Positions 1,900-30,004 of a DNA stretch of 41,348 bases are shown piece after piece (positions within the stretch are counted from its first letter, which is position 1; each line of letters begins with the position of its first letter). The position numbers and the translations under genes are program-made. The stretch is taken from the IMG/VR virus record IMGVR_UViG_2622736425_000001; one strand, 5' to 3'. Below the pieces are notes generated by a model. It made no database searches, was not told the origin of the DNA, and worked only from the letters and a program-made list of their open reading frames with translations. The stretch is from a virus.

Positions 1900-1914
1900 A
1901 AAAATTTTTCAGAA

Positions 1915-8798: not shown

Positions 8799-10466
8799 AT
8801 GACATTGCAGAAAAAATTACAAATCAATATTGTCATGAGCAATTACAACCAGAGGAGCAGTAGCTATTCATCCGGCCATGATTATATCTTCCTGGATAAT
8901 TTAGCCAGCAGTTCTTACTCCAATTATTTCAGAAGTGATTTGAAAAACCTGAAGATCAAAACTTCCAATGGTACTGAATGTCAGGTAGTATACATTCCAT
9001 CTTATGGATCACAAGGCGCAGCAATACTTGCAAGGGTTTCTGTTGGTCAGATTTCACAAAACACAAAGCTACTCTTGGACGTTCATGATACAGGAACAGC
9101 ATTCGCAAGCACTTTATCAACTGGTAATGAAGTTTTAATGTTTGATGCAAATAATGATACATACTCACAATTTTTCATGAACTACTCCGGTTTATCATCA
9201 AACAATGACTCAACAGATGGGGGCCAATTTTTAAGAGCTAGATTTGTTCCTAACCTCGAAGGAACTTCTCCAACTGATTTGTTTACCACATTTGCTTCAG
9301 GCCAACCATTAGCCAACAATCGTGTTGTTGTAGCCAGATTCAAATATATTAACGGTAATGTTTTTGTTAATGATAATGCAACATATCACGGTTCAACCAT
9401 TGGAGGCATCATGATGCAAATTGATGGAACTCTCTCACCTGATGAGTCTAATGTAAAGGCTACTGTCAACTATTGGGGTGGGGAAAAAGATTATTGCATG
9501 TTCACTGGTGCTAAGACTTTAGTATTGGCCAGTTCATTTGATGCTTACAATCAGGGAAGTGATGAAGAGGGAAACTGGAAACAATATCATTTTCATAATC
9601 GTGTTGGAACAGGAACATCGAATACATCAGATTATATTGAAGGGTTCAGCAGAAATAATCCAACTAAAATTTATCTTGGGTGTTTTAAAATGATTATTGA
9701 TTATGATGTAAATTCAACAATCGGACATGGCCGTGGATATCCAACAGGCCTTGAACATACAGAGAAAATGGATGTAATAGCTTGTCTTTTAGATGAGGGC
9801 GAAAGAACATATGTTAATGATGAACATACTGCTTGGATTTGTTCCAATCAATGTGCAGTCGGCGATATGGTAACTTTAGATATGTCTTCAACAATGGAAC
9901 ATACAATTGTTAGAAAAGCTCAAGCAGGAGAATTGGCTTTCGGTTATCTTTTAGGTAAAGTCCAGGTTAAGACTTCAGGATTAACATTAGTTGCTGTGGC
10001 CGTGTTAGGTGATGTCTTTAGATTAAAACTCAAAAGGCCAGTGGCTGAAGACATATTGCCGAATACAAGAATCTATATTGACAGTGCCGGTGAATGCAAT
10101 CCGGTTGAAGGCCATGACTTAAGGCTGTTGTCAATCGTTAATCTTCAAAATAATGAGGATACTGATTACATTAGAGTTTATCGTCAGATGTCTGAGGTTG
10201 AAATGTATCGGGAATCTCAGAACTGTATTGATCTTGGAGATTGCAGTTTTGAACAGGATGAGATAACTCACGTTGTTAATATGATCGTGCCTTCAGAGTC
10301 AAACATCATGGCCCAGGCAAATTATGTAAAGGATGCAGACGGTGTCACCTATTGTGAGCTTCCTGATGTAGCTATTGTCAATAACGTCCGTTTCGTATGG
10401 GAAGACAACAAACTCTACATGGAATGGGAAGGATGTGATGATGGCCAAAATGTATATTTTATATAA
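8799..10466 (+). CDS. Putative virion spike/head-fibre protein containing an internal decoration-protein domain
   Basis: Residues encoded at about 9762-10187 align by eye with the 17429-17923 product (LLDEG, VxDxVTL, VLGxxFRLKL, NxRIxxxSxG, YIxVxR). The N-terminus is weakly DUF2341-like. The C-terminus has short beta repeats (FVWEDNKLY). Confidence 0.65.
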   Translation: MTLQKKLQINIVMSNYNQRSSSYSSGHDYIFLDNLASSSYSNYFRSDLKNLKIKTSNGTECQVVYIPSYGSQGAAILARVSVGQISQNTKLLLDVHDTGTAFASTLSTGNEVLMFDANNDTYSQFFMNYSGLSSNNDSTDGGQFLRARFVPNLEGTSPTDLFTTFASGQPLANNRVVVARFKYINGNVFVNDNATYHGSTIGGIMMQIDGTLSPDESNVKATVNYWGGEKDYCMFTGAKTLVLASSFDAYNQGSDEEGNWKQYHFHNRVGTGTSNTSDYIEGFSRNNPTKIYLGCFKMIIDYDVNSTIGHGRGYPTGLEHTEKMDVIACLLDEGERTYVNDEHTAWICSNQCAVGDMVTLDMSSTMEHTIVRKAQAGELAFGYLLGKVQVKTSGLTLVAVAVLGDVFRLKLKRPVAEDILPNTRIYIDSAGECNPVEGHDLRLLSIVNLQNNEDTDYIRVYRQMSEVEMYRESQNCIDLGDCSFEQDEITHVVNMIVPSESNIMAQANYVKDADGVTYCELPDVAIVNNVRFVWEDNKLYMEWEGCDDGQNVYFI

Positions 10467-11737: not shown

Positions 11738-13108
11738 TAGTAATCAACGCTGAAAATTATAAAACTATTGCAGGAAGTTTTCCTCCCAGTTTTTCCAAAA
11801 ACTTGAATTATCAACTACTTTTTTAAATTCGGTCTTAAATAGGTATTTTAATTGTGCAATGCTTGAAATGTATTTTCTAGAAATTTTAGCTTTGATTGTT
11901 CTCCATACTTGTTCTATTGGATTGTATTTTGGGGAATATGGAGGTAAATGAATTAAATCCATATTTAAAATTTTGCATAATTCTGTGAAAAATATTGCAT
12001 GGTGGACGCTGTAATTGTCTAAAATAACTGCTATTGGTTTTTCTAGGATTAATTCATGTTTTAGTTCATTATCTGAGAAAAATGCTAATAACATTCCTTT
12101 TTGAAGATTTTCGAGAACTGATTTACTTTTTGTTTTAAAACTGAGCGGATTTTTTTCAAGTCTTTCGTATAATTTTTTAATTGTATTATTTTTTTCAGAC
12201 AAGTTTTTAAATGTTAATAATAATTTATTATAGTTCTTTTCTTTATTTATTGTATTTAATATGTTTTCTAGGAGTAATTCATCATTATTGATTATTTTTT
12301 TTAATTTTGATTTTAATTCTTTGTTTTCGATATTATTGATGGTGATGGTGATCATAAATTTCATCATTTCAAAGGTTTTAGTGTTATCTAAAAATGATAG
12401 AAATGAATTTCCATTAATTGCTTGAATACCAAGTCCATTTATTGAAATTCGTTCTGTTGGTTGTTCTTTGATGTTTTTTGTGCCTTTTTTATGGTATGTT
12501 CTTTGACTATTGTCCTGATTTTGACAATATGTTTGATCCAGAAATACGACAGTGAAATTTTCTAAATCTAGATGTCGAGTGTTTTTTTTAACTGTTCTTC
12601 GGCATCAGCGGGCATTTTGGCATAAATTTTATATGGTTTGGTGTAAGAATATCCTAATTTTTTCATTATCCGTTCTATACTTCTAATACTGTATTTTACT
12701 TCAAATTCTTTTTCAATTTTATCTTTTACTTCTCTTGCAGTTTGCAAATTTTCTTCTTGTATTATTTCATCTAATAATATCAATTGTTCATCAGTTAGTT
12801 TTGATTGACCTTTGGAGCCTTTTTTTCTTTTTAATCCTTCCATTCCACCTTCATTCCATTCCCTTATCCAATTATATACTGTTCCTTGACTGATTCCATG
12901 CTTTTCCACAATATATGGTATTGGTTCATCATGTAAAACGTCTAGAATAACATATAATTTATTTAAAACCCTAGTATCATTTTCTAACTTCTTTATTTCA
13001 GCTTGTATCTCAGAAATAATTCCTAAATACTCCTTAATTAATTTTTGATTAGACATAATAATATTTATTATACCTAATAGTATTTATAATTTTCAGTGTC
13101 TAGAACTA
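11738..13108 (-). mobile_element. IS630-family insertion sequence (1371 bp)
   Basis: Imperfect 27-bp TIRs (11738-11764 and 13082-13108, 21/27 identical, CTGAAAATTATAAA core). TA flanks at 11736-37 and 13109-10. Confidence 0.9.
11765..13056 (-). CDS. IS630 transposase expressed via a -1 frameshift
   Basis: HTH orfA (12568-13056) has an A8 run at 12582-12589. The -1 frame reads KKNTRHLDLENFTVVFLDQ... into 11765-12367, giving the DDE motifs VFLDQ / VILDN / YNPIEQVW. Confidence 0.88.
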
Positions 13109-13551: not shown

Positions 13552-14565
13552 TCATTTGGATTGACAAATCTTTAATTGATAATTCTCATTATCTTCATTT
13601 TTAATCTCATCTAATGATTGTATGGCTATTCTATTTTCAACATACCATTTTGAATGTTTGACTTTAATTTGATTTATTCTAGATAATTCATCAATTAGTA
13701 ATCTAAATGTATTATAAACTTCTAATACAATTTTATTTTGCTTTTGAAGATATTTTATATCAAATTCATTATCTCTAATGTTATGTGAAGGTTTAGATCT
13801 TTCACTTCTTACTTTATTAATAATCTTTATTGTTTTTTTGATGGTGGCTGGAGATACTCCAATTTCACCCAACCATTCTTTAAATAAAGTTATGGTTCCT
13901 TTATCTTTCTTTTTTGTACCGTCTTTATTAGTAAATTCAATTAAATCTAATTTCCCTTCAAAGAATTTTTTGTTGATGTTATCTGAAAGCATTATGTCAA
14001 ATATTTTAATAAAATTATCATATTCTTTTTTAGTAGATAATACTAATATATTAAATTCAATTGGGGGTTTTTTCTTATAATTGGATTTAAATAATTTAAT
14101 TTCATTATCTGAACATAAATTGTTAAGTTGTTCTATTTGATATAATATTGCACTAAAAACAGAGGGATCGGGCCATTCTCCATCATTCATAGATTTTATG
14201 TATGATGGATCAACATAACTTTTCTTTTTAACTTCATAAACACTGAATCTTTTTTGCATTTCAGGGTGTAATTCAGACAGTTCTTTTAAAAGTACTGCAA
14301 AAATTCTTTCATTGTTTTCATCAAATCCAAGACCCACATTATCCAAAATAAATTTAAATTTCTCATCAAGTGTTTCATCATTATCATATTTTTCTGTGAT
14401 GCTTATATTATATTTAAAAGAATTATTGCTGATAACATACCTTGGGTTATCAATAATATTTCTTAATAAATCTACTTCAAAATAAACAAGCTCATATGGA
14501 CATTCTCCATTTGTTAATTTTTGAGTATAATGCCCTTCAATCATATTTTTTCTCCTTGGTTCCAT
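13552..14565 (-). CDS. Hypothetical protein with a C-terminal HEPN-like RxxxxH motif (putative RNase/Abi)
   Basis: VRSERSKPSH near the C-terminus (13783-13800). Probable start is ATG 14544. Confidence 0.5.
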   Translation of the reverse strand: MEPRRKNMIEGHYTQKLTNGECPYELVYFEVDLLRNIIDNPRYVISNNSFKYNISITEKYDNDETLDEKFKFILDNVGLGFDENNERIFAVLLKELSELHPEMQKRFSVYEVKKKSYVDPSYIKSMNDGEWPDPSVFSAILYQIEQLNNLCSDNEIKLFKSNYKKKPPIEFNILVLSTKKEYDNFIKIFDIMLSDNINKKFFEGKLDLIEFTNKDGTKKKDKGTITLFKEWLGEIGVSPATIKKTIKIINKVRSERSKPSHNIRDNEFDIKYLQKQNKIVLEVYNTFRLLIDELSRINQIKVKHSKWYVENRIAIQSLDEIKNEDNENYQLKICQSK

Positions 14566-14571
14566 AATATA

Positions 14572-15150
14572 TCAGTTATTAAGTTTTTTTAAGTAATCAT
14601 TTGTATTTTTTAGTTCATCTTTAATTTTAGTTAAAGACATTTCTATGGAATCGGATTCTGATGTTAAATAAGAAACACTTTTGATATAGCTCAAATCACT
14701 GATATATTCTCTTGTTATTTTAGTATTATAGATATTTGTAAATGTTATAATGAATTTATATTTAACTGGATTATCTTCATTTTTTAAGTAATTAAATCCC
14801 ATATCAAAGAAAGCTTTAATTTGATAATTTGGAGGTAAGAATGAAATTTCCTTTAAATGTTCATAATCTTTATTATGTGAATCTTTTAATTCAGGTTCAA
14901 CTTCAATAGATATATCTTTAGCAACTGTATTTCCTATATTTTCAACAATTAAATACATTCTATTATTTTCTACTTTAAAATACATTATTACCTCAGCAGA
15001 ATTAGCCTCAACACGTGTTTTTTTCATTTCTTCAACAGATTCATTTGTTGAACGTGCCATTTTATATGTTGCGAATGCCATGAATCCCGTAACGATTGTT
15101 AGAATTATATCTAAAATAATTGAAATAAAATTTAAATCCATATTTTTCAC
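14572..15150 (-). CDS. N-terminally membrane-anchored hypothetical protein
   Basis: One TM helix, then a beta-rich region (YLIVENIGNTVAKDISI). Confidence 0.6.
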   Translation of the reverse strand: MKNMDLNFISIILDIILTIVTGFMAFATYKMARSTNESVEEMKKTRVEANSAEVIMYFKVENNRMYLIVENIGNTVAKDISIEVEPELKDSHNKDYEHLKEISFLPPNYQIKAFFDMGFNYLKNEDNPVKYKFIITFTNIYNTKITREYISDLSYIKSVSYLTSESDSIEMSLTKIKDELKNTNDYLKKLNN

Positions 15151-15178
15151 ATTAACTATTTTTCAACCTATAATTTCC

Positions 15179-15343
15179 TTATTTAATTATTTTTAATTCT
15201 AATGTTTCTTTTTCAGTATCTAGAATCCATTCTAATATGTCCCCGGATTTAATATTCAAAGCTTTAACATATGTTTTAGGGATTGTTGTTATGAGTGAAA
15301 TCTCACCTTGGTTTCTAACTTTTGTTTCTTCATTAATTTTCAT
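15179..15343 (-). CDS. AbrB/SpoVT-family DNA-binding protein (54 aa), absent from the ORF track
   Basis: Translated by hand as MKINEETKVRNQGEISLITTIPKTYVKALNIKSGDILEWILDTEKETLELKIIK, which fits the TIPK...LNI..GD.LEW AbrB pattern. Confidence 0.75.
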   Translation of the reverse strand: MKINEETKVRNQGEISLITTIPKTYVKALNIKSGDILEWILDTEKETLELKIIK

Positions 15344-15470
15344 ATTTATTTATATATTTTTTATATTAAATAACACTTTTGATTTATTTTAATAGTTAAA
15401 AAAGTAACACTTAAATATCATTGGGTAGATATTATATACTAGATAATACAGAAATATAATTTGCATAAAA

Positions 15471-16481
15471 GTGGTAATTATGATAAAAGTTATAGAATTA
15501 TGTGCCGGTGCAGGCGGGTTAGCACTTGGATTTGAAAAAGCAGGTTTAGAACATGAGGTGCTTGTTGAAATTGATAAAGATTGTGTGGCAACACTTAATA
15601 AAAATAGACCTGATTGGAATGTACTTCATGCAGATATAAAAGAAGTTGATTTCACACAGTACCATCCAGATATAGTTGTAGCAGGACTGCCTTGTCAACC
15701 ATTTTCTTACGCTGGTAAAAAATTAGGATTTGATGATACAAGAGGAACATTATTCTTTGATTATGCAAGATGCATTAAAGAAACTAATCCAAAAATGTGC
15801 ATAATAGAAAATGTAGAAGGTTTAGTAAGGCATGATAAAGGGCGAACAATGGAAACAATAGTGAATGTATTGGAAAATGAATTAGGTTATGATGTTCAAT
15901 ATAAAGTCCTAAATGCAGTTGACTATGGTGTAGCACAAAAAAGAAAAAGAATGTTTCTTGTAGGAACTAAAAAAGGAATAATATTCAATTATCCTAAAAA
16001 AGTTAAAGGTAATCCTGTGCTTCGTGATGCCCTTAAAGATGTTCCGGAATCAGAAGGAACTGAATACTCTGATAAGAAAAAAGAAGTACTTGAGTTAGTT
16101 CCACCTGGAGGATGTTGGGTTGATCTTCCAGAAGATGTTCAAAAAGAATATATGGGTAAAAGCTTCTATTCTGGTGGTGGAAAACGAGGTATGGCAAGAA
16201 GAATCTCATGGGATGAACCATGTTTAACATTAACCACTTCACCATGTCAAAAACAAACAGAAAGATGCCATCCAGAAGAAGTAAGACCATTCACAGTAAG
16301 AGAGTATGCAAGAATACAATCATTCCCCGATGACTGGGAATTTGAAGGCGGAATAACTTCTAAATACAAACAAATTGGAAATGCAGTACCAGTTAAAGTT
16401 GCTGAAGCAGTAGGAAAAGAAGTTATCAAAGCATTAAATGGCGAAAATAAAAGAAAAGAAGGTCAAACAACTTTATTTTAG
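15471..16481 (+). CDS. C5-cytosine DNA methyltransferase (M.Eco47II/M.Sau96I-like)
   Basis: Motifs ELCAGAGG (I), PCQPFS (IV), ENV (VI), QKRKR (VIII) and KYKQIGNAVP (X). Confidence 0.93.
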   Translation: MVIMIKVIELCAGAGGLALGFEKAGLEHEVLVEIDKDCVATLNKNRPDWNVLHADIKEVDFTQYHPDIVVAGLPCQPFSYAGKKLGFDDTRGTLFFDYARCIKETNPKMCIIENVEGLVRHDKGRTMETIVNVLENELGYDVQYKVLNAVDYGVAQKRKRMFLVGTKKGIIFNYPKKVKGNPVLRDALKDVPESEGTEYSDKKKEVLELVPPGGCWVDLPEDVQKEYMGKSFYSGGGKRGMARRISWDEPCLTLTTSPCQKQTERCHPEEVRPFTVREYARIQSFPDDWEFEGGITSKYKQIGNAVPVKVAEAVGKEVIKALNGENKRKEGQTTLF

Positions 16482-17215
16482 TCTTTAAATATTAGTTGTT
16501 TGTACTTTTCAAATACTACTTGGTCTTTTGGAGTTAAAATATGTTTACTCTTTTTAATATCATTTATTGCATTTGGAAGTGCATCAAATAATTGTTCAAA
16601 AGCAGTTTCATCTCCAGTGACTAATGTATAAACATCTTTTCCAGCAATATTTCTAATATTATCATTTATTTCATGTACAACATTTTCTTTATTGTCTCTA
16701 TACACCCAAGTTTTATCAAATGATTCATAATTTTGTGAAACTATATACGCCCAATATATTTTAGCATTTGGATATTTTTCAGCTAATTCTTCACATTTGA
16801 ATCGAGTATCTCTTAAAGAACTTGAATTCATTGTATTGTATTTATTTTTTAATTCAATCCATATTGTATCATCTTCTTTTTTCAAGTCCATTCCGGATGG
16901 ATGACCTCTTCCAAGATTTACCCAACCATCAACACGACCTAAAAGATTCTGGTGGAAATCACCAACACGATTACTTGCAGTTTTATCATGTTGTCTTGGA
17001 ATTTCAAAATTAATCCATTCACTTAAGCTGAATCTATTTGAATAAATATCAAATAATGTTTTAAATTGGTCAATAGTTTCTCTACTATTGCTTAAAACTT
17101 CCCAAGGTGTTTTTGATAAATCTTCATCCGTTGCATAGGCATCTACAACTTTTTTTACTTCTTCTAGAAATATTTCATCTGAAACAAAAGTTACATATTT
17201 ATTCATAATTTGCAC
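16478..17215 (-). CDS. Eco47II-family type II restriction endonuclease
   Basis: GDFHQ...GMDL...ELKNKYNTMNSSS motif. Convergent with, and overlapping, the MTase. Confidence 0.8.
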   Translation of the reverse strand: MQIMNKYVTFVSDEIFLEEVKKVVDAYATDEDLSKTPWEVLSNSRETIDQFKTLFDIYSNRFSLSEWINFEIPRQHDKTASNRVGDFHQNLLGRVDGWVNLGRGHPSGMDLKKEDDTIWIELKNKYNTMNSSSLRDTRFKCEELAEKYPNAKIYWAYIVSQNYESFDKTWVYRDNKENVVHEINDNIRNIAGKDVYTLVTGDETAFEQLFDALPNAINDIKKSKHILTPKDQVVFEKYKQLIFKD

Positions 17216-17428: not shown

Positions 17429-17923
17429 ATGGCAGATTCTATAATTTTACTTGAAGAGAGAAAAGAAGTCACAACCTTCCTTCTGGATGAAGGTACAATC
17501 ACCGCAACTACAGTTACAACTCCTACAGGTGAAACTCCAGGTTACGAATACGCAGGAACAAAAATAAAAGTCGATGATGTAGTTACATTATCAGTCAATT
17601 CAGACATCGGAAAACCAACAGTCAAGAAATTCACTGGTGCGGAAGGAGAAATCATCTTAGGCATTGCAGTAAACGATCCGGTTACAATGACCGGAGGTAA
17701 AAGAAAAACAGCTATTCTCGTATTGGGTCATTTATTCAGATTAAAATTAGCATCTGGAATTTCAAACATTGCTGTTAATAACAGAATAGCTTTAACCAGT
17801 ACAGGTGCTATCAAATCAGATGAGGGAGAATATATTGCAATGCATCCTGTAACTAGCTCAGATGATTACAAATACATCGAAGTGTTCAGACCATATGACA
17901 TCGGAACTACAGGTTCAACTTAA
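17429..17923 (+). CDS. Capsid cement/decoration protein
   Basis: 164-aa beta-rich protein directly upstream of the MCP genes. GGAGG RBS. Confidence 0.65.
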   Translation: MADSIILLEERKEVTTFLLDEGTITATTVTTPTGETPGYEYAGTKIKVDDVVTLSVNSDIGKPTVKKFTGAEGEIILGIAVNDPVTMTGGKRKTAILVLGHLFRLKLASGISNIAVNNRIALTSTGAIKSDEGEYIAMHPVTSSDDYKYIEVFRPYDIGTTGST

Positions 17924-17934
17924 GGTGATAATTA

Positions 17935-18873
17935 ATGATTACAAAAGGAAATGATACAAAAGTTCAAAATGAGGTAATAGCTCAAACCATTACTGATGAA
18001 ACTGCAAAAAGATTGAAGTTAGCTAGATTGTTTCCTAAACAAGAAATCAAAGAGAACTCAGATTACTACACATACTTCAGACAGAACATCAATCTCGATG
18101 AAGCTATCAAAAAAGGTTTGCTTGGAGAAGCAAAAGACATTGCTCCCGGTGCATCATTGCAAGAATTGAACATCAGAAAACCTGTAACCGACACAATCAG
18201 TATTGATACTGTTGGTGGAGTCTTGAATGTCAATAAGGATGTTTTCGACTCAGATATCGTTTCATTTGAGGATTTATTAGGCGATGTGGCTACCGTTATT
18301 GCTAACCGTATTGAATACAACATTTACGATACATTAATAAGCTCACCGAACGTTCCACAATATAACACAACTCAAACAGATGATACAATGGATGCTTTCG
18401 GTAACTTTGTCATCAAAGCACAGGAAGCATTCAAAGGCAATGCTGGAGCTGGAGCAGATTTAACAATAATGGCAGAGTCTTACAAAACATTATCATACGT
18501 TAAACAGTTGGCTTACTCCTCAAACAAATTGGTTCAGCCTGTAGAAGACATTAAGGAATACTATGGTATTGATAACATTGATCTTTTAGGAACTACACAG
18601 GCTGACGGCGGATCTCTAATAGGTGAAAAACAGTACATTGGTTTCGATTTAAGAAATGCACCATTAACTGTATTGTATTCCAAATCTTCAGGAACTACAG
18701 TTGCACCTATTACAAGTGATGAGAACATTGCAGATTTCTATCCCATCATTGAAATCATGCGTAAAGACATTTACGATGAGTTACCTCAATATACAAAATT
18801 ATTCATACAAAGTAAAGTCGGAATATTGCTGAATAAACCAGGACTTGCCCTGAAAGGTACTTGCAGGCCATAA
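17935..18873 (+). CDS. Major capsid protein 1 (HK97-fold, inferred)
   Basis: About 310 aa with a pattern typical of HK97 MCPs (LxRLFP...YxY...AKDIAPGA.L.E...GG...DVA..IA..IE), downstream of the decoration gene. Confidence 0.72.
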   Translation: MITKGNDTKVQNEVIAQTITDETAKRLKLARLFPKQEIKENSDYYTYFRQNINLDEAIKKGLLGEAKDIAPGASLQELNIRKPVTDTISIDTVGGVLNVNKDVFDSDIVSFEDLLGDVATVIANRIEYNIYDTLISSPNVPQYNTTQTDDTMDAFGNFVIKAQEAFKGNAGAGADLTIMAESYKTLSYVKQLAYSSNKLVQPVEDIKEYYGIDNIDLLGTTQADGGSLIGEKQYIGFDLRNAPLTVLYSKSSGTTVAPITSDENIADFYPIIEIMRKDIYDELPQYTKLFIQSKVGILLNKPGLALKGTCRP

Positions 18874-18885
18874 GGAGGATTGTTA

Positions 18886-19812
18886 ATGTTAACCAAAGGA
18901 AATGATGCAAAAGTACAAAATGAAGTGATGGCACAGATTGTGGCCGATACTTCTGCAAAGTGGATGAAATTCACAAGATTATTGCCAAAGCAGGAAATTG
19001 AAGAGAACTCACAGTATTACACTTACATGTCTCAAAGAGTCAATATTGAGGAAGCTATTCAGTCAGGCGTTCTTGGTGAAGCCAAAGACATTGCTCCTGG
19101 CGCTACTTTACAGGAACTGAACGTCAGAAAACCAATCAGTGAAACTATCAGTATCGACACTATCGGTGGAGTTTTAAACGTTTCCGCTCAAATGCTTGAT
19201 TCCAATTTAATCTCCGTTAATGACATGCTGCAGGATGTGGGAATCCTTATAGGCAGAAGCATTGAAAAGGCAGCCATTGACATGATTATGAATTCATCTA
19301 AAGTAGCTACCTACAACTTCGAAAGTGGCGATGACACTGGTATGACCATCCTCAAAGCTCAGGAGAAATTCAAGGAATCAGCAGGTAGCTATGCCAACTT
19401 AAACAGCATGGCCGTAAGCTACAAATCTTTGACAACCCTGAAATCAGACATATTCTCAAGCAACAGACAGGTCGAACCGGTAGAACTTATCAAAAGCTAT
19501 TACGGTGTTGACAACATCGATATCTTAGGAACAGCAGTATGCGATGGCGGTTCCGAGATGGGTGACAAGACCTATATCGGTATGGACTACATCAACCCAG
19601 GAATGAAATTATTATACTCCAGAACTACCGGAACTACCGTTGCTCCGTTAGGACCTGACGGTGAGATGTATGATTTCTATCCATTGATTGAATTCATGAG
19701 AAAGGACATCAGGGATGAGCTGCCGATGTACACCAAACTCTTCATCCTGTCAAGCGTTGGAGTATTAATGAATGCACCTAACAGAATCATCAAAGGTAAT
19801 TTCAGAGCATAG
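18886..19812 (+). CDS. Major capsid protein 2, a full-length paralogue of MCP1
   Basis: Colinear with MCP1 from end to end (TKGNDxKVQNEV, LGEAKDIAPGA, YYGxDNID, GTTVAP, DFYP, MRKDIxDELPxYTKLFI). Own GGAGG RBS. Confidence 0.72.
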   Translation: MLTKGNDAKVQNEVMAQIVADTSAKWMKFTRLLPKQEIEENSQYYTYMSQRVNIEEAIQSGVLGEAKDIAPGATLQELNVRKPISETISIDTIGGVLNVSAQMLDSNLISVNDMLQDVGILIGRSIEKAAIDMIMNSSKVATYNFESGDDTGMTILKAQEKFKESAGSYANLNSMAVSYKSLTTLKSDIFSSNRQVEPVELIKSYYGVDNIDILGTAVCDGGSEMGDKTYIGMDYINPGMKLLYSRTTGTTVAPLGPDGEMYDFYPLIEFMRKDIRDELPMYTKLFILSSVGVLMNAPNRIIKGNFRA

Positions 19813-19835
19813 AACCATATTTTATCTCCTAAAAT

Positions 19836-19864
19836 ATTAGTGAAGTTTCAATAGCTTCACTAAT
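19836..19864. terminator. Hairpin after the capsid operon
   Basis: ATTAGTGAAG-9 nt-CTTCACTAAT perfect 10-bp stem. Confidence 0.5.
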
Positions 19865-19922
19865 TTCTTCTGCTCCGTTTTTATATGCAATAATCGCCAT
19901 ATTATATACTGGAGGCTATAAA

Positions 19923-20339
19923 ATGAAACTGATATTAGATACTGAAAATTCACATCCAACAACAATAACAGTCAAGGGAAAAGAAATAACATTGCTGTTG
20001 ATTGAATCCAGTATACTGATTGATTCATCCCAGATAGCCAAGATTTTTGACAAAAAGGAAAAGACAGTAGTTACTAAAGTCCTAAAATCCAAACTGGAGA
20101 AATACGAAACAGAAAACGTTAAGCTACTCAAGAATTACGGGTTGATGCATCCTGATGCAGTCAAGCCAAGACCATTCTATGACTTAAGGCAGATGCTGGA
20201 AGGACCAGCTTATTACTACTTCAAAAAAGAAGATGAAGTTGATATAATCAAAGTAATCATCAGGGTAGCTATCGGCAAACATCGTGAGTGGATTCATAAT
20301 CGGTGCATTGATAAATTTAGGGTTGGGTGTGTCCGATAA
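19923..20339 (+). CDS. Viral hypothetical protein
   Basis: GGAGG RBS and base composition like the viral islands. No family recognised. Confidence 0.7.
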   Translation: MKLILDTENSHPTTITVKGKEITLLLIESSILIDSSQIAKIFDKKEKTVVTKVLKSKLEKYETENVKLLKNYGLMHPDAVKPRPFYDLRQMLEGPAYYYFKKEDEVDIIKVIIRVAIGKHREWIHNRCIDKFRVGCVR

Positions 20340-20626: not shown

Positions 20627-22303
20627 ATGAAGTTCATAAATATTGATGTAGGTGGAGATGATTTTATGTTGGGTATAAAAGAATTTTTAAAGCCTTCAGT
20701 TTTAGGATACTATAAACGTTGTGAAGTTACTCAAATTTCTTTTTACAAAGATAATCATGAAGAGGAATCTAATTTATTAACTTTATTTATTTTTGATGAA
20801 GAAAATTTTCAAGGTAGGAATGAAATTTTTTTGACTGGCAAGAAGAATAAAATAAATTCTAAGTATAAATTATGTATTAAAAGATTTTATTTATCTATTG
20901 AAGAAAGTATTGAACTTTTCAATTGTTTAAATCAGGGTGTTTCAAAAACAAGTTCATTAAAGAAATATATTTTTAATGATAATCCTTTAAAATTATTGCC
21001 TCAGCAATTCATCACAACAAATGAAGACATTAGATTTAATAAGATACTTAAAAATAATTTCCATAGTGGTTCTTATATATTTGAGTTTTTTGATGAAGAA
21101 AAAGATTTTGAATTATTATTTGGTTTAAATAAATCGGGAAGGTTAAAAAAGATTTCAAAGATGATTGGGGAAGTTGTTCCAATTGATTTGTTGTCTTGTA
21201 CTGATTGTTTGGGAAATTATATTTTTCAATTACCAATAACTATTTTAAATGTTCACACAAATAAGAATAAGAATATACTTGGTATTGATTTTTATTGGCA
21301 TAATAATTTAATTAATGAAGTTAAACCTAATTGTTTGATTAATATATATTCAAAAGTTGATAATAATTATCTATTTGATATTTTTGAGGAATATAATAAA
21401 GAAAATCATCAAAAAATTAACATATTGCCTTCTGGAAAAAATTATGTTTTAAAAATATGGAATAATGATTTAAAAATATTGCTATATGAAATGAATAGTA
21501 AATATTTTGAAAAATTCAGAGTTTCATTGAGTATGAGTGAGTGTGAAAGAAAATTTATTGAGGATAATGGAGAATCTGAAGTAACTATCATGTCAAACCC
21601 TAAATTAAGTGATGATATTAGTTATTTAAATTATAGAAATGATGCAATGTATAAAAAGAATTTAAAAGAACTGGAAGATAATCTTAAATTTAACACATAT
21701 ATGCAAAATGAGAACGCATTAGAAGATATAAAAACATTAATTAATGAATATGGTAAAAATGGTGTGAATATAATTGATCCTTATTTGGAACCGAATGATT
21801 TAATAAGAACAGTAGTCCATTTGAAATTCTATGATGCGCCAATAAAAGCAATTACTTCTTTAAAAAATTCATTTAATGAATTATTGATAATGAAAGAAAT
21901 GTTAGAGCAACTTCCAAATCAAAATATAGTTCAAAATTTTAAAAATGTTTTAAATGAAAAAATAGAAAAAGAAAAAAAATCTAATCTTGAATGTATTGAA
22001 GATTATAAAAAGGAGTTGGATGAGAAAATTATTAATTCATGTGGATTAAATTTAGTATTTAGGGCTCAATTTGATAGATATGGTCAACCATTTCATGATA
22101 GATTTTTAATTTTTCCTGGAGATGATGAAAAATTACTTGAACCCATAGTATTTTCATTAGGAACTTCATTAAATGCTTTTGGTAAACATTTCCATATATT
22201 GCAAGAGGTTTCACATCCGCAACATGTGGCTGATGTTTTTGATAAGTTATGGGGGATATTAGAACAAAAAGAGGAGTGTCTGATTTGGAATTCAAAGGAA
22301 TAA
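20627..22303 (+). CDS. VPA1262-like protein with a C-terminal PLD-like nuclease domain
   Basis: C-terminal IIDPY...FHDRFLIF...SLGTSLN matches the HDR/GxSxN PLD-variant pattern. The family name comes from recall only. Confidence 0.5.
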   Translation: MKFINIDVGGDDFMLGIKEFLKPSVLGYYKRCEVTQISFYKDNHEEESNLLTLFIFDEENFQGRNEIFLTGKKNKINSKYKLCIKRFYLSIEESIELFNCLNQGVSKTSSLKKYIFNDNPLKLLPQQFITTNEDIRFNKILKNNFHSGSYIFEFFDEEKDFELLFGLNKSGRLKKISKMIGEVVPIDLLSCTDCLGNYIFQLPITILNVHTNKNKNILGIDFYWHNNLINEVKPNCLINIYSKVDNNYLFDIFEEYNKENHQKINILPSGKNYVLKIWNNDLKILLYEMNSKYFEKFRVSLSMSECERKFIEDNGESEVTIMSNPKLSDDISYLNYRNDAMYKKNLKELEDNLKFNTYMQNENALEDIKTLINEYGKNGVNIIDPYLEPNDLIRTVVHLKFYDAPIKAITSLKNSFNELLIMKEMLEQLPNQNIVQNFKNVLNEKIEKEKKSNLECIEDYKKELDEKIINSCGLNLVFRAQFDRYGQPFHDRFLIFPGDDEKLLEPIVFSLGTSLNAFGKHFHILQEVSHPQHVADVFDKLWGILEQKEECLIWNSKE

Positions 22304-23769
22304 TTGATAATTTTGATGAATTTAATATGATTTTGGTTAATGAAGAATTAATATTATTATTTGAAAGTTTGCATGACTTTTCCTTTGATGAATTAATGTA
22401 TTTTGAAGACCCATTACATTATGAAAATATTGGTGTTCAAAAAATCATGTCTCAAATTGATGAGATTATATCTGTTTTATTTTATAATATTGATATTAAA
22501 ACAACTGATGATGTCATAAGTATTGTAAAAAGTGATATTTTATTATTTAAAAGAGCTATGGATCAAATTGATTTGAAATATTTTATTTTTTTCTCGTATC
22601 TAAATTCTTATTTGAATGTTGATGTTGATTATTTGATAAATCATTTTAACTATGAACTAAATATGATTAAGATGGAAGAAAAAATTAATGAGTTATTTAA
22701 TCAAATTCAAGTTTTTCCTAAACCTAATGATAATAACTTATCACCACTTTTAAAAAATGTTTTATTTAAGTCCTTGAAAAAAGATGACATTATGCATTCA
22801 TCATTAAAGTTATTAAATATTAGTAAAGATCCATTCATTTTTTATAATTTTAAAATTTATTGTCCAAAATTATTAACTAGTATGCTGATACTTATTAAAA
22901 AAATAAATTATGATTTCTTTTTAAGAAATATGTTTGATGTAAATAATTTAATCATGGCAGTACTTTTTTGTAAAGAATTAGATATATCTGAAATATTAGA
23001 GTGTTATTATGAAAACGATATTTCTAATATTGATTTATTATTCACATTTTTGAAAAAAAGTATAGATTCTAATGAATTAATAGATGATAATATTGTGTTT
23101 ATTAAGGATATTCTACTTGATATTTTGGAGTTAAATGAAAATTTATTTAGAAAAATTATCAGATTATTCAAACATAAAAAGTTATTTAATAGATCAATTG
23201 GTTTATTATTGTCTGGAATTAATAAATGGGAAGTTGAATTAATTGTTAATGAATTTGACTTAAATTTTGGAGCAAATAATCATCTAATTAATCTTAGGGA
23301 AAATATTTTAATAAACCTCGATAAAAAATCGGATAATTTTAAATTAGTTTTAAAATTAGTTTATAAAAATTGGGATTTGAATTTAAATTCTTTGATTGAT
23401 GATGATGAGAATGGATGGGATTTATTATGCAGTGATTTTAATTCATTTATTTTAGAATATTATAATCAATTTTATGATGATGATATGTTGGTTGAAGAAA
23501 TGAAATTGAATTTTAATTTTCTTGAAAAAATTAATTCAACATGGTCATCTAATTTTACAAATTATAAAAATAGGATACATGTTTATTATACGAAATTATA
23601 TTTGTTAAGTTCAATTTATAAAAAAAGGAATATTAATAATATAGAGATATTGGGATGCTATGAGAATTTCTTTAAAAATAAGTATTTAATTGAAGTTTTG
23701 TTAAGAGATAAAGCGAAAAAATCGATTATTGATTTTAAAAAAGATTATAATATGATGAAAATTCAGTAA
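22249..23769 (+). CDS. Large alpha-helical hypothetical protein, overlapping the PLD-like gene
   Basis: 506-aa ORF overlapping the previous stop. Very AT-rich. Confidence 0.7.
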   Translation: MGDIRTKRGVSDLEFKGIIDNFDEFNMILVNEELILLFESLHDFSFDELMYFEDPLHYENIGVQKIMSQIDEIISVLFYNIDIKTTDDVISIVKSDILLFKRAMDQIDLKYFIFFSYLNSYLNVDVDYLINHFNYELNMIKMEEKINELFNQIQVFPKPNDNNLSPLLKNVLFKSLKKDDIMHSSLKLLNISKDPFIFYNFKIYCPKLLTSMLILIKKINYDFFLRNMFDVNNLIMAVLFCKELDISEILECYYENDISNIDLLFTFLKKSIDSNELIDDNIVFIKDILLDILELNENLFRKIIRLFKHKKLFNRSIGLLLSGINKWEVELIVNEFDLNFGANNHLINLRENILINLDKKSDNFKLVLKLVYKNWDLNLNSLIDDDENGWDLLCSDFNSFILEYYNQFYDDDMLVEEMKLNFNFLEKINSTWSSNFTNYKNRIHVYYTKLYLLSSIYKKRNINNIEILGCYENFFKNKYLIEVLLRDKAKKSIIDFKKDYNMMKIQ

Positions 23770-23794
23770 TTAATATTTTTTAAGGGAGTATATT

Positions 23795-25282
23795 ATGTTT
23801 AAAGAGGGCATTAATACAATTATAATTGAAAGTTATGATGAACTGGCATGTATTATAAAAGGAAAACATGAAAAGAATAAAATGGACCTTCGTGAAGATT
23901 TTATATTTTGGGGATTATCAAACATCGAATATGAATTAATTCCTTCTGCTTTAAGAAGAAATAAGTTAAATCAACTTGAAATTAATGAATTAATTGAATC
24001 TGATCACATATTTAAAGTTTCAATTGATGAAAATGATGCCAAAATGTTTAATTTAGAATATTCTGAATCAATAAATGATGGTGAAGTTATAATTGGAGTA
24101 GATAAATATGGGAATCTGATTCATGATGTGAAATCTGATTATAAAGTTTTAGAATGTGATTTGCAAAGAGAAAGAGAAAATTATCTTCTATTAAAATTTT
24201 TTAATTGTGCAGATAAATCTGGTTTGAAAGTTAAATCAGAAGGATTTTTAAGAGAGTTGATTCATAATTATTCTTCAAAACGATTAGAAGAGTATTGGTT
24301 GGATTTTGATATTTTAGAAACTATATCCTTGGCTCAACATTATGGTTTGCCGACTAAAGCTCTAGATTGGTCTTATGATTATAAAGTTTCATTATATTTT
24401 GCTGTAAAAGATGTAATTGAATCTAATTTGTCTTCTGATGGAGTATTGTGGGCCTTAAATTATAAATTAATTGAAAACCATAATTTTAATGAGGAATATT
24501 ATGTTAATTTACATATTCATAGGCCGGAATATAATACAAATCCTAATTTAAATGCTCAAAAAGGATTATTTACTTTTTTAGAAAGATATGTTGGAGATTA
24601 TGACAAACCATTAAACAAAATAATTTCTGATGAATTAAATAAAACTCTTGACCAAATGCCGTGGGATAATCTTTATGAATCTAAAATTAGGACAATTCCG
24701 GATGATATATCTAAAAATGATACGATTTTCTATAAATTTATTATTCCTAAAGAAATTAAACAAAATATTTTAAATGAATTATATTTGGAGGGTTATTCTG
24801 AAGAATATTTATTTCCCGGATATAAAGGAGTTTGTGAATCAGTAATTAATAGAGTAAAGTTAAATGAGATATTAAAAAATAATGATGAACATATTAAAAA
24901 GAGCATATTATTGTCCGTGGACTGGAATTTAAATGAAATTATAAATAAAAATCAACTTTATGTATTTGTAAACTTGGATTTTAAAGAAGAAATTGATAAA
25001 ATCTTTATTTACCATAATAATGATGTTGTAGGTTATTTTAGAGGAAATGAAATAATTAAAGATTCACTAAATGTGTTATGGGAACAGTTTGGGGAACATT
25101 CAGGTTTATCTGAAGATAAATTTGATGAGTGTTTTAAAGGTAATGATGAATCATTTGCAATTAGAATTAATGATTTAAATATTTTTAAGCATTCAATTAA
25201 ATTGTGTGACTTTGAATTGGAGAATGATTTTTGTTTTGTTGAGGATAATGAAGATTTAAAATTTTTATTGAATTTTAATTAA
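23795..25282 (+). CDS. FRG-domain protein with a C-terminal ASCH/PUA-like domain
   Basis: LAQHYGLPTKALDWS...LYFA and N..AQKGLF are FRG motifs, but the signature reads FWG. The C-terminal VVGYF....I....LW......SG....F...F.G....FAI.I is an ASCH-like pattern. Confidence 0.78.
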   Translation: MFKEGINTIIIESYDELACIIKGKHEKNKMDLREDFIFWGLSNIEYELIPSALRRNKLNQLEINELIESDHIFKVSIDENDAKMFNLEYSESINDGEVIIGVDKYGNLIHDVKSDYKVLECDLQRERENYLLLKFFNCADKSGLKVKSEGFLRELIHNYSSKRLEEYWLDFDILETISLAQHYGLPTKALDWSYDYKVSLYFAVKDVIESNLSSDGVLWALNYKLIENHNFNEEYYVNLHIHRPEYNTNPNLNAQKGLFTFLERYVGDYDKPLNKIISDELNKTLDQMPWDNLYESKIRTIPDDISKNDTIFYKFIIPKEIKQNILNELYLEGYSEEYLFPGYKGVCESVINRVKLNEILKNNDEHIKKSILLSVDWNLNEIINKNQLYVFVNLDFKEEIDKIFIYHNNDVVGYFRGNEIIKDSLNVLWEQFGEHSGLSEDKFDECFKGNDESFAIRINDLNIFKHSIKLCDFELENDFCFVEDNEDLKFLLNFN

Positions 25283-25366: not shown

Positions 25367-26185
25367 ATGTCAGATAATAAAAATAATAATATTAGTTGGA
25401 CAAGTTTTTGCCAAGCTATGAATTCCATAGCATACTGGCTACTCCAAAATAAAAAGAAGTATAAGAAACGTGACCATTACCAAATATTAACGTTAAAAGG
25501 TAGTTGTAGCGATATAGAAAAGAAAGCGAAGAAATTAGGAAACGATAAACTAGTATCAATGTATACAATGGCTTTAATCAAAGATAATACATCTTTAGAT
25601 TTCCTTCCAAACTATGTAACATTAAAGAACGGAGAACAAATTGATAAAGCCGAATATGTAGATATGGCCATAAGGACAGAAGCATATATCAGAGCAAATA
25701 AAAGACTTCCGGCTATTGTATATAGAATGTCAACACTTCCAGATTACAAAGATTCCACAATGAAGCTATTTATCAATGTATTCAACTTCAAAGGAAATAC
25801 AATCGATGAAGCATTAGCTATTATATCAAAGATGAAATTATATAGTAAATACTTCGATTCACAAAAAACAGACAAGAAAACAATCAATGATGCTAGTCTG
25901 GGTAAAGGTTCAAATTGTGTAGACTGGGGACAAGTATATTATCGTATAGCGAAATCATTAGGATATGATGTACAATTTGTCCATGTCAAATGCCGTGTAA
26001 GTGGAACTGGCCATATAAAATTAAGATTAAAACATAAAAAACATACTGGAGGAAACTGGATTAACCGTGATCCTGCTGCAGTTGCGGATACCACTTCAGG
26101 AAATGTTAAATCAATCTGGTGTGAAGATGGTTACCTCATAGCATATGATCCTTCCTGGATATTCACAGATTTATATAGCAGTTAA
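25367..26185 (+). CDS. pei: Pseudomurein endoisopeptidase (PeiW/PeiP-like endolysin)
   Basis: PMBR-like LPNYVT...EYVDMA.R...YI..N.RLP..V, plus the transglutaminase-like triad NCVD / GH / DPAA. Confidence 0.85.
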   Translation: MSDNKNNNISWTSFCQAMNSIAYWLLQNKKKYKKRDHYQILTLKGSCSDIEKKAKKLGNDKLVSMYTMALIKDNTSLDFLPNYVTLKNGEQIDKAEYVDMAIRTEAYIRANKRLPAIVYRMSTLPDYKDSTMKLFINVFNFKGNTIDEALAIISKMKLYSKYFDSQKTDKKTINDASLGKGSNCVDWGQVYYRIAKSLGYDVQFVHVKCRVSGTGHIKLRLKHKKHTGGNWINRDPAAVADTTSGNVKSIWCEDGYLIAYDPSWIFTDLYSS

Positions 26186-27792: not shown

Positions 27793-28605
27793 ATGGGTCG
27801 AGGAAATTCAGATATCATATATTTTTTAGAACAGCATGAACAGGAAATAATAAACTGCTGCAAGAAGGGAATGAGCAACAATGAAGTCATTGAACTATTA
27901 AAAACAAAATATGGTCGTGATGTAGCAGATATTACTTATAGAAAATTCAAGGCGGGTTTAAATCTAACAAAGAGTGATTTCCTGGAAACATTGTTGGATG
28001 AGATAATGGTCATGAAGACATCTGGTGCAACAGATGCAAATGTCAGGCGATGGCTGGAAGAGGAACATGAAATCGAAGTGAGCAGATCCACATTCTCAAG
28101 ATTCAAAAAGAAATATCACATAACAGATAAAGAAAAAGACCCAAGGGCAAGAGATAAAGATTCATTAACAAATAGGGCAATCACTCAAGGCCAAATTATA
28201 GACAATGAAGTTCACACAGACAATATCGACTTAGCTATTGATACAATACTTCAGCAACAGGTTACTGATATCAAAACGGGTCTTGACAATCTTGACAAGA
28301 TTACCAAAAATGCTGTGGGTATTGAAATTGACTTTGCAAAGCTCGACCAGGAAGTAAGATACAATGCCAACGAAAAAAGTCTGGCAAGATACCTGATTGA
28401 TTTAACAGAATTAAAAATAAGATACTTGGAATTATCAGTTAAAGCATTTGAAGCTAAAAACAGGCTGTTCAAGGATGAAATGGATAGGCTATTTAAAAAT
28501 AGAGTTCTTGAACTGGAAGACAAAAAGATTGAAATCTCACAAAAAGACATCATGAATGAAATAGAAATCCTTGCAAAACAAATTGATGATAACAATGTAC
28601 AATGA
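27793..28605 (+). CDS. Terminase small subunit candidate (tandem HTH + coiled coil)
   Basis: Overlaps the TerL start. Two similar HTH-like units (aa ~10-58 and ~63-110). Confidence 0.6.
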   Translation: MGRGNSDIIYFLEQHEQEIINCCKKGMSNNEVIELLKTKYGRDVADITYRKFKAGLNLTKSDFLETLLDEIMVMKTSGATDANVRRWLEEEHEIEVSRSTFSRFKKKYHITDKEKDPRARDKDSLTNRAITQGQIIDNEVHTDNIDLAIDTILQQQVTDIKTGLDNLDKITKNAVGIEIDFAKLDQEVRYNANEKSLARYLIDLTELKIRYLELSVKAFEAKNRLFKDEMDRLFKNRVLELEDKKIEISQKDIMNEIEILAKQIDDNNVQ

Positions 28606-30004
28606 GAACAACGAATTCTATTTGGATGCTAGGGATAAAGTTATTCTTCAGAAATGTGTGTATGAGAATCCATATATTCCATTCTCTCCATTTCCAAAGC
28701 AGGCCGAAATGATTTTAGCTAGAGAAAAGGAAGTCCTGATTGGTGGTGCTGCAGGAGATTCCAAATCAACAAGTCTTTTGATGAGGGCATTGTTCTATGT
28801 TCAGGATGACATGAATGAATACCATGCCCTCATCCTGAGACGTACATTATCTGACTTGAAGCGTAAAGGAGCTTTAATTCACAAGGCAAGTCAATGGTTA
28901 AATCGAAAGGAAATTCAAAATAATGCAAGTATCAAACCGAAGTGGGATGGAACCGAACACTCATGGACATTTCCCAATGGAAATTCATTAACTTTCGGAT
29001 ATTTACGTAACATTAATGACCTTGATACATATCAGGGTTCCGAATACCAGTTCATAGGAATTGATGAGCTGACACAGTTGGAGAGGTTTAAATATATCTA
29101 TATGAGGTCAAGAGTTCGTAAGACCAAAGACAATAAGCTTCCAACACAACTGATGGCATCAAGCAATCCGGGTAAGCGTGGAAACAAATGGGTGCGTGAA
29201 AGATTCATAGAAAAAATAGACACTGACATTCAGGATAAATCACAAATAAGATTCATTTCATCCAGCTACTTGGACAACATCTATCTAGACAGAAACGACT
29301 ATGAAGAATATCTTATGGGATTAGATAGAGTAACAAGAGAGCAATTAATGAACGGTAACTGGTATGCCTCAGTCAAAGGCCAGTTATTTGATGAATCAGA
29401 CTTCCACATAATCTCTCAAGATGAATGCCTGAAAATACCAATCGTTAGAGTCATCAGATACTGGGATCTTGCAACTACAGAAGTATTGAACGATGACAAA
29501 TTGAGAGGAAGTGATCCGGATTATACTGCTGGTGTTTTATTAGCTAAAGATCTAAACGGTAATATCTACATTTGGGATTCATATGAATTTCAGCTTGAGT
29601 CAAGAAACTTGATCAATGAAATACTGAACACTGCAGCACGTGACAAGTCAGATGTACAGTATATTGAACTCGATGGAAGCACAGGTAAAAACTTCGGATT
29701 ATTAATCATAGATGAGCTTAACAGAAGAGGATTCACTACAGGTACTGGTAACTCAAGAGAAAATAAAGTTGACCGTGCAAGAAGAGTTTCAGCAGATATT
29801 CAGAAGAACGGAATATTTCTGGTTGGGAAGGATAGAACAGGGTTTACGAAAAAATGGGCCATGGAATTTCTGGAAAAAATTACTGCTTATCCAAATGAAG
29901 CCATTCATGATGACTGTGTGGTGGCATTTACTGGAGGATATGAAAAAATAGTTGCAGAAAAACAATCACAAAGAGTTAATGTGGATAAATGGTATTCCAC
30001 ATGA
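28595..30004 (+). CDS. terL: Terminase large subunit (PBSX/Terminase_6-like)
   Basis: Walker A-like GGAAGDSKS, Walker B IGIDE, coupling motif ASSNPG, and nuclease WDLA...DYTAG...HDD. Confidence 0.9.
   Translation: MYNENNEFYLDARDKVILQKCVYENPYIPFSPFPKQAEMILAREKEVLIGGAAGDSKSTSLLMRALFYVQDDMNEYHALILRRTLSDLKRKGALIHKASQWLNRKEIQNNASIKPKWDGTEHSWTFPNGNSLTFGYLRNINDLDTYQGSEYQFIGIDELTQLERFKYIYMRSRVRKTKDNKLPTQLMASSNPGKRGNKWVRERFIEKIDTDIQDKSQIRFISSSYLDNIYLDRNDYEEYLMGLDRVTREQLMNGNWYASVKGQLFDESDFHIISQDECLKIPIVRVIRYWDLATTEVLNDDKLRGSDPDYTAGVLLAKDLNGNIYIWDSYEFQLESRNLINEILNTAARDKSDVQYIELDGSTGKNFGLLIIDELNRRGFTTGTGNSRENKVDRARRVSADIQKNGIFLVGKDRTGFTKKWAMEFLEKITAYPNEAIHDDCVVAFTGGYEKIVAEKQSQRVNVDKWYST

Follow-up and report, generated by a model that had tools for sequence, protein, structure and literature searches.

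Two diverged major capsid paralogues in tandem, kept as a pair in vir323-like proviruses of Methanobrevibacter

Introduction

To our knowledge, nearly all HK97-fold tailed viruses make both hexamers and pentamers of the shell from one conformation-switching protein, and the T4-type phages are the textbook exception. What is the role of two full-length major capsid protein (MCP) genes lying in tandem in one small archaeal virus? This question was raised by a stretch of 41,348 nucleotides from the IMG/VR virus record IMGVR_UViG_2622736425_000001 (the whole stretch analysed, hereafter the window), in which two paralogues, here called A and B, occupy positions 17,935 to 19,812. An original prediction, made from the letters of this DNA, described them as intact and diverged capsid genes, kept by selection after an old duplication. 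The pair is already catalogued as two head proteins in GenBank BK063679, and the genes themselves are not new. New in this analysis are the conservation of the tandem, the single-copy state of distant relatives, the clades formed by the two copies, the saturation of their synonymous sites, the selection acting on both and the map of their divergence. We consider it quite probable that A and B are both shell subunits of one capsid.

Results

Two intact capsid genes in tandem

Gene A (17935..18873, plus strand) encodes a protein of 312 aa, and gene B (18886..19812, plus strand) one of 308 aa when started from ATG at 18886, or of 310 aa from an alternative TTG start at 18880. The frames of both genes are open throughout in the window, and reading of the open reading frames (ORFs) gave the same coordinates and lengths as the original prediction. 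By BLASTP, the two proteins are identical at 175 of 311 positions (56%), with 73% positives, a single 4-residue gap and an E value of 3e-128, in agreement with an earlier estimate by eye of roughly half identity. Each gene carries its own Shine-Dalgarno (SD)-like site, AAGGTGAT ahead of ATG 17935 for A and AAGGAGGA for B. The latter lies directly 3' of the A stop codon and 6 nt before ATG 18886; GGAGGA is the SD site of B, and the ATG of B is located 13 nt downstream of the A stop codon. The proposal of two intact copies, each with a ribosome-binding site of its own, was thus supported by both the uninterrupted frames and the two sites.

Fold and family of the two proteins

B matched the Pfam family PF25209 (Phage_capsid_4) with 31.7 bits against a cut-off of 27 (E 2.5e-7), while A alone gave no Pfam match and is linked to PF25209 through B. 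A profile search over 1.84 billion representative proteins detected 82 relatives in all, among which 14 were full-length (297-335 aa) and at most 47% identical to A; PF25209 was matched by 7 of 16 aligned family members. The structure of A was then modelled by AlphaFold2 with this 16-sequence alignment (pLDDT 85.1, pTM 0.81), and the model was compared by Foldseek with PDB, giving the PhiTE capsid (E 1.2e-11), HK97 (1ohg_A, E 4.9e-10), HRP29, Haloferax tailed virus 1 (HFTV1) and encapsulins, all with probability 1.0. Against BFVD, the MCP of Halogranum tailed virus 1 was matched with E 5.9e-13, the best E value in this database being 1.9e-13. At the level of the predicted structure, A is confirmed as an HK97-fold capsid protein with N-arm, E-loop hairpin, long spine helix, A-domain and P-domain, as had been proposed from the sequence. 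B probably takes the same fold, because it is 56% identical to A and matches PF25209, and both proteins would help to build the icosahedral virion shell. When A, B and the family profile were searched against the sequences in PDB, no meaningful match was obtained. Searches with the capsid pair gave no match in NCBIfam and chance-level matches only in PHROGs, and neither A nor B matched a Gp23-family entry of Pfam or PHROGs.

Origin and selection of the duplicated genes

The nearest relatives outside the group carry one MCP each on the recovered contigs, namely P0122 (47% identical to A and 45% to B), P0129 (about 36%) and P0137 (about 31%). Immediately upstream of this single MCP gene, each has a homologue (156-171 aa) of the decoration gene that stands before A, and on the P0129 contig the MCP gene follows genes of portal and protease size, as in the canonical order. 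In the maximum-likelihood tree, all A sequences formed one clade (100/100) and all B sequences another (100/100), with P0122 outside both; P0122 was sister to A+B (100/98), and the grouping of A with B was weak (84/48). The A and B subtrees have their main subgroups in common. Since the two clades are separate and share subgroups, and the outside relatives are single-copy, the duplication is lineage-specific and older than the diversification of the known members.

The proportion of synonymous differences (pS) between A and B was 0.67-0.77 overall and high in all six 52-codon segments, i.e. saturated. Recent gene conversion between A and B was considered and rejected, because saturation was observed in every segment, the more conserved N-terminal third included. 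Divergence after duplication was symmetric, with stem branches of 0.33 and 0.38. Comparison of 72 fixed differences with P0122 showed that the outgroup state was kept by A at 26, by B at 19 and by neither at 27. For 13 distinct loci, pairwise Nei-Gojobori estimates of the ratio of nonsynonymous to synonymous substitution (dN/dS) were 0.045 for A and 0.038 for B, with dS in these estimates mostly about 1 or saturated. Three loci (L003, L004 and L008, 10001-10939) encode an identical 312-aa A protein from genes differing at 58-62 of 939 nt, all of the changes being synonymous, which is a sign of unusually tight constraint. These comparisons indicate that both copies are under strong purifying selection and that neither drifts. 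The view of an old and selected duplication thus stood up to the phylogeny of both copies, to the saturation of synonymous sites and to the dN/dS of about 0.04 for each, neither copy evolving neutrally.

Distribution of the tandem pair

The survey covered 201 species-representative genomes of the family, that of the window (G000) included. Matches were found in 12 of the 201, one of which carries two proviruses; of the 11 genomes besides G000, nine carry the tandem pair and two hold contig-end fragments only. In one of these loci (G147), A is interrupted by TAG with B intact. A further 47 loci were collected from IMG/VR (1) and GTDB species genomes (46), and both genes were complete and open in 33, cut by contig ends in nine, and damaged by stops or frameshifts in five (A only in L072 and L092, B only in L095, both in L090 and L091). 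A is followed by B in tandem wherever the contig allows (about 60 related loci overall), and the order decoration gene, A, B and 132-aa gene was found in all six metagenomic contexts of an A homologue. No lineage among the surveyed loci showed clean loss of one copy. The original prediction had held that relatives with a single copy would speak against it; close relatives carry both copies, and only distant ones (32-47% identical) carry one.

The virus group is widespread in rumen and gut Methanobrevibacter. On M. smithii metagenome contigs L004-L007, a remnant includes only the decoration-A-B-132-aa genes, the gene for pseudomurein endoisopeptidase (Pei) and two small genes, flanked by MCM, BstXI-type restriction-modification (R-M), DUF4365, OLD-TOPRIM and host genes; no gene for the small (TerS) or large (TerL) terminase subunit and no tail gene was found within 10 kb on either side. 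The A protein of these remnants is recorded in 214 contigs. Three contigs of 3.5-3.8 kb with the A-B pair (L075, L092 and L095) were binned in metagenome-assembled genomes of Paludibacteraceae, Lachnospiraceae and Erysipelotrichaceae, most likely by binning error and not from bacterial hosts. Two ORFs, P0128 and L032:1498-2601 (minus strand, on contig 14 of G189), end in a C-terminal half that corresponds to residues about 125-308 of MCP-B (83% identical). Their N-terminal half is unrelated, resembling by eye the start of a tyrosine recombinase and giving no Pfam match, and these ORFs are probably deletion fusions in decayed proviruses.

Regions of divergence between A and B

Among 312 aligned columns, 141 were invariant across all A and all B sequences, and 106 held no residue common to the two clades; in 73 of the latter, each clade was invariant. 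The differences were concentrated at residues 101-160, 181-200 and 221-260 and in the last 12 residues, and A and B were most alike at residues 61-100 and 261-300. By the predicted monomer, the divergent parts would correspond to the spine helix, the loop after it (with the 4-residue indel, at A residues 152-155) and helices and hairpins of the A-domain, and the conserved parts to the E-loop region and strands of the P-domain. In shells of the HK97 type, the A-domains are packed about the axis of the capsomer, and capsomers are tied to one another by the E-loop and P-domain. With the putative inter-capsomer parts conserved and the intra-capsomer A-domain diverged, the pattern would fit two kinds of capsomer that must still dock together; it would also fit complementary A-B interfaces inside one hexamer.

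Operon and decoration proteins

Eleven nucleotides upstream of A ends the gene for a 164-aa decoration/cement-like protein (17429..17923, plus strand), which has its own GGAGG 8 nt before ATG; the intergenic region upstream of this gene is AT-rich with TATA-like runs. Downstream of B, the sequence shows a short inverted repeat (GTGAAG...CTTCAC) and then runs rich in T (19813..19900, plus strand), which mark a probable operon end and possibly a transcription terminator. Judging from the tight spacing, the SD sites, the upstream TATA-like runs and the downstream inverted repeat, the 164-aa gene, A and B appear to form one three-gene operon. The next gene (19923..20339, plus strand) encodes a 138-aa protein, the counterpart of the 132-aa vir323 'hyp132', with only weak helix-turn-helix- or Rha-like matches; this conserved neighbour comes next after B in every complete relative examined.

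The 164-aa protein itself gave no Pfam match. Its homologue adjacent to the P0137 MCP (28% identical) matched XM1_gp53_minor_capsid (4e-6), Phage_cement (1.4e-5) and Phage_cement_2 (7e-4). The model of the 164-aa protein was weak (pLDDT 59), as were its Foldseek matches (E 0.013-0.7), but decoration or cement proteins recur among the matches listed, namely those of HFTV1, Borrelia BB1, T1, the phi29 gp8.5 head-fibre base, Pam3, lambda gpD and XM1. The decoration domain is present three times in the virus, as the free 164-aa protein, in a 210-aa protein of vir323 and in a 256-aa protein. In the 210-aa protein, encoded in the tail-side module (L036:7985-8617) and missing from the window, the domain is 55% identical and fused to a collagen-like C-terminus. 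The window equivalent of the 256-aa protein (vir323 00006) is the C-terminal part (9690..10463, plus strand) of an ORF at 8799-10466; it is 30% identical to the 164-aa protein over 149 aa (BLASTP, E 1e-12) and 83% identical to the vir323 256-aa protein. Duplication of the shell genes together with triplication of the decoration domain suggests position-specific parts of the head.

Codon usage was tried as a proxy for the relative expression of A and B. GC content at third codon positions (GC3) was higher in B than in A in 11 of 13 lineages (0.46 vs 0.31 in the window), codon positions 1 and 2 being equal in GC. Although B is richer in GC3, its codon adaptation index, calculated with the ribosomal-protein and mcr genes of this provirus's host as reference, was lower (0.417) than that of A (0.516), and codon usage was set aside as a proxy. 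Because of this lower index, the GC3 excess of B is not an adaptation to the highly expressed genes of the host.

Virus, host and closest genome

The window carries genes for Pei (25367-26185), TerL (28571-30004) and an integrase (40233-41348, minus strand), and close homologues of A carry the names of Methanobrevibacter smithii, M. gottschalkii and Methanobrevibacter sp. The Pei gene and the Methanobrevibacter genomes with homologues show that the host is an archaeon, and the assignment to an archaeal virus made in the original prediction was correct. The nearest named virus, identified by tblastn against a phage collection, is Caudoviricetes sp. vir323 (GenBank BK063679.1 / NC_133304.1), a circular genome of 34,179 bp with Methanobacteriales as host, obtained from an enrichment of goat faeces. 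Its vir323_00024 is 95% identical to A and vir323_00025 is 97% identical to B, both annotated as 'major head protein, HK97-like fold', and vir323_00023, annotated as 'preneck appendage protein', is the counterpart of the 164-aa decoration protein (86% identical). The three-gene block from vir323_00023 to 00025 is in the order of the window. With TerL at 92%, protease at 91%, Pei at 87%, decoration protein at 86% and TerS at 81%, A and B are the most conserved proteins of the element in this comparison.

In vir323 and in G119a, a complete provirus in a closed genome, the genes are arranged in the order of portal, protease, 452-aa protein, 256-aa protein, small genes, tail genes, tail fibre, cargo, decoration-A-B-132 aa, cargo, Pei lysin, cargo and TerS-TerL. 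Portal, maturation protease, terminase and tail genes are thus all present alongside A and B, and the MCP genes are displaced from their usual slot after the protease, the operon lying apart from the portal-protease block. The window provirus fits the synteny of vir323-like viruses (decoration-A-B-132 aa, then Pei, then TerS-TerL) with high protein identity. No other MCP gene is annotated in vir323, and tblastn found none in the genome of the window; a third match to the A/B profile was absent in both. The slot behind the protease is filled by the 452-aa protein, which was considered as an MCP candidate and rejected, since it resembles DUF2341/laminin-G lectin-like proteins (a lead only); it matched neither Pfam nor PHROGs.

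Unlike vir323, a complete genome in which the protease is intact and portal, tail and tail fibre are present, the window provirus has a stop codon in the protease, an insertion sequence (IS), lost tail genes and inserted defence and TPR genes. Its portal gene is intact, 119 bp left of the window (G000:C2:31948-33246), and the protease-scaffold gene (3903-4865) contains one in-frame TGA at 4134-4136. Portal and protease are adjacent in vir323, unlike the window, where about 4 kb of AT-rich genes (1-3632), a 632-aa ORF and two zinc-ribbon/TPR proteins, lie between them. The 452-aa gene is truncated in the window, an IS with split transposase ORFs (11765-13056) cuts a phrog_1574 homologue, and a search of the whole genome at E 1e-8 found no tail module (from the 210-aa protein through the tail fibre). 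Still intact are the decoration-A-B operon, the 138-aa gene and the genes for Pei, TerS and TerL. The provirus in the window is therefore defective, and because of this its capsid genes are probably virus relics rather than genes in use.

Discussion

The capsid pair is best explained, in our opinion and with moderate confidence, as the two-subunit shell of a vir323-like virus, with specialization for hexamers and pentamers as the most likely form. A heteromeric shell, a hexon-penton split and two capsid sizes had all been named as options in the original prediction. A single ancestral gene for an HK97-fold MCP would have been duplicated in tandem before the known members diverged, and both copies would then have become indispensable, likeliest because each holds different positions in one icosahedral shell. 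A and B would be co-transcribed with the decoration protein from the three-gene operon, and one paralogue would make the hexamers and the other the eleven pentamers, as do gp23 and gp24 of T4. This form of the two-subunit shell is placed in the lead by the T4 precedent and the divergence pattern of A and B. Several points weigh against it. We infer the presence of both proteins in the virion, as well as their positions therein. Strong ribosome-binding sites on both genes, with B starting 13 nt after the A stop, suggest similar synthesis of the two proteins, and a T=7 shell with a hexon-penton split needs a ratio of about 6.5:1. The divergence after duplication was symmetric, both in stem length (0.33 and 0.38) and in retention of the outgroup state (26 vs 19 sites). 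T4 gp24 is far more diverged from gp23, with about 20% identity. The domains of A were assigned by the order of secondary structures in one predicted monomer and not by superposition on a capsid, and the model of the 164-aa decoration/cement-like protein is of low confidence.

The nearest analogues of the A/B pair appear to be T4 gp23/gp24 and the two-component encapsulin. In T4, gp23 for hexamers and gp24 for vertex pentamers are, like A and B, two HK97-fold paralogues that arose by duplication in one virus. The T4 pair belongs to a separate sequence family, whereas A and B share 56% identity and are of almost the same length. The genome of T4, a myovirus with a prolate head, measures 169 kb, compared with about 34 kb for the virus of A and B. 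The relation to gp23/gp24 is thus seen as one of analogy in arrangement and not of membership, and the divergence pattern would be compatible with, though not decisive for, a division into hexon and vertex as in T4. Mutations that bypass T4 gp24 map to the A-domain, at the interface within the capsomer (PMC9958956), in parallel with the divergent regions of A and B as assigned by the predicted monomer. In Streptomyces lydicus, two co-encoded HK97-fold shell paralogues of a Family 2B encapsulin co-assemble into mixed shells (PMC11071501). Foldseek with the A model also returned encapsulins; the S. lydicus encapsulin differs as a cellular nanocompartment without portal, terminase and tail, while A and B stand in the genome of a tailed virus, beside genes for portal, protease, terminase, tail fibre and lysin, and with no cargo-like gene. 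MSTV1 ('Usuviridae') of Methanobrevibacter smithii is a temperate tailed virus with an HK97-like MCP and a hypervariable region of defence genes; its single MCP gene is diversified by programmed -1 frameshift that adds an Ig-like domain (PMC11375127). The virus of A and B, from the same host genus, has instead two separate MCP genes and no Ig-like extension. Literature searches found no published MCP paralogues in tailed archaeal viruses.

Tandem genes, 13-nt spacing and strong SD sites, which fit poorly with a large excess of hexamer subunits, would be in keeping with the alternative that A and B are instead mixed within capsomers, alternating for example as A3B3 with one of them also filling the pentamers, and fewer quasi-equivalent conformations would then be needed per subunit. 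This arrangement is a serious but clearly less probable alternative. It is in line with the near-equal amounts of the two proteins that the spacing and SD sites suggest, with symmetric divergence from the single-copy outgroup and equal constraint, as for obligate partners, and with the predicted placement of fixed differences in the A-domain and spine helix, i.e. at the subunit interface within capsomers; mixed HK97-fold shells are known in the two-component encapsulin (PMC11071501). The same sequence pattern is also compatible with the hexon/penton reading, and literature searches found no tailed virus with hetero-hexameric HK97 capsomers. Nor do we know of a tailed virus with such capsomers. 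A more specific version, with obligate A/B hetero-hexamers or another fixed tiling of two subunits to which three decoration proteins bind at defined positions, is slightly more doubtful still; if true, quasi-equivalence would here be solved with two genes, in a way that has not yet been seen among tailed viruses with the HK97 fold. We consider it improbable that only one paralogue builds the shell and the other has a different function, for instance at a special vertex, in a ring near the portal, as an assembly factor or as a decoy against capsid-sensing defence. The virus lives among many defence genes (R-M, HEPN/MNT, OLD-TOPRIM and DUF4365), and three decoration-domain paralogues make position-specific head parts plausible, but both A and B are still full-length, share one predicted architecture and have dN/dS values that are equally low, the putative capsomer-joining elements are best conserved in both, and no asymmetry in rate was observed.

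Two further readings concern the fate of the genes after decay of the virus. Retention of the operon by the archaeon as an encapsulin-like or gene-transfer-agent-like shell is very unlikely. The operon is intact here despite the protease stop and the genome-wide absence of the tail module, and M. smithii L004-L007 keep decoration-A-B-132-Pei without TerS, TerL and tail genes within 10 kb on each side. A test for selection after decay on these remnants was abandoned, because their sequences are virtually identical and gave no signal. Other decaying proviruses lose A and/or B through stops and frameshifts (L072, L090, L091, L092, L095 and G147), and the occurrence of almost identical proteins in different species and genera speaks for a mobile virus. 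A cargo gene is not evident. Least credible of all, and close to negligible, is a redundant duplicate with one copy dispensable and drifting to loss. A broken A beside an intact B in some proviruses (G147 and L072) could be read in this way, but both copies are intact in 33 of the 38 loci that are not truncated by a contig end, the breaks hit A only, B only or both, as in decay of the whole provirus, and never as clean single loss, and the dN/dS of about 0.04 for both copies, over synonymous distances near or beyond saturation, contradicts it.

As the pair is already annotated in GenBank, the gain of this analysis is a sharpened and testable hypothesis rather than the discovery of genes. A small archaeal virus (about 34 kb) with two constrained shell genes is a compact natural system for studying how duplicated capsid proteins divide quasi-equivalent positions. 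Complete proviruses are present in the closed genomes G119 and G154, so that work on virions looks feasible if those strains are cultured, and in such particles one could also see whether the three paralogues with the decoration domain correspond to the two shell proteins.

Variable cargo and a second provirus

Two segments of the window, 13552-17215 upstream of the decoration gene and 20627-25282 between the 138-aa gene and Pei, are hot spots of variable cargo. The cargo in the window includes an Eco47II-type R-M system (15471-17215), two large AT-rich genes and an FRG-domain gene, and the corresponding slots of L003-L008 hold HepT/MNT, BstXI R-M, DUF4365, OLD-TOPRIM and DUF4411/M78 genes. 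A second related provirus, heavily decayed, is located in the same genome (G000:C1:549547-551432 and 645135-645725), with TerL, TerS and protease pieces carrying several stops.

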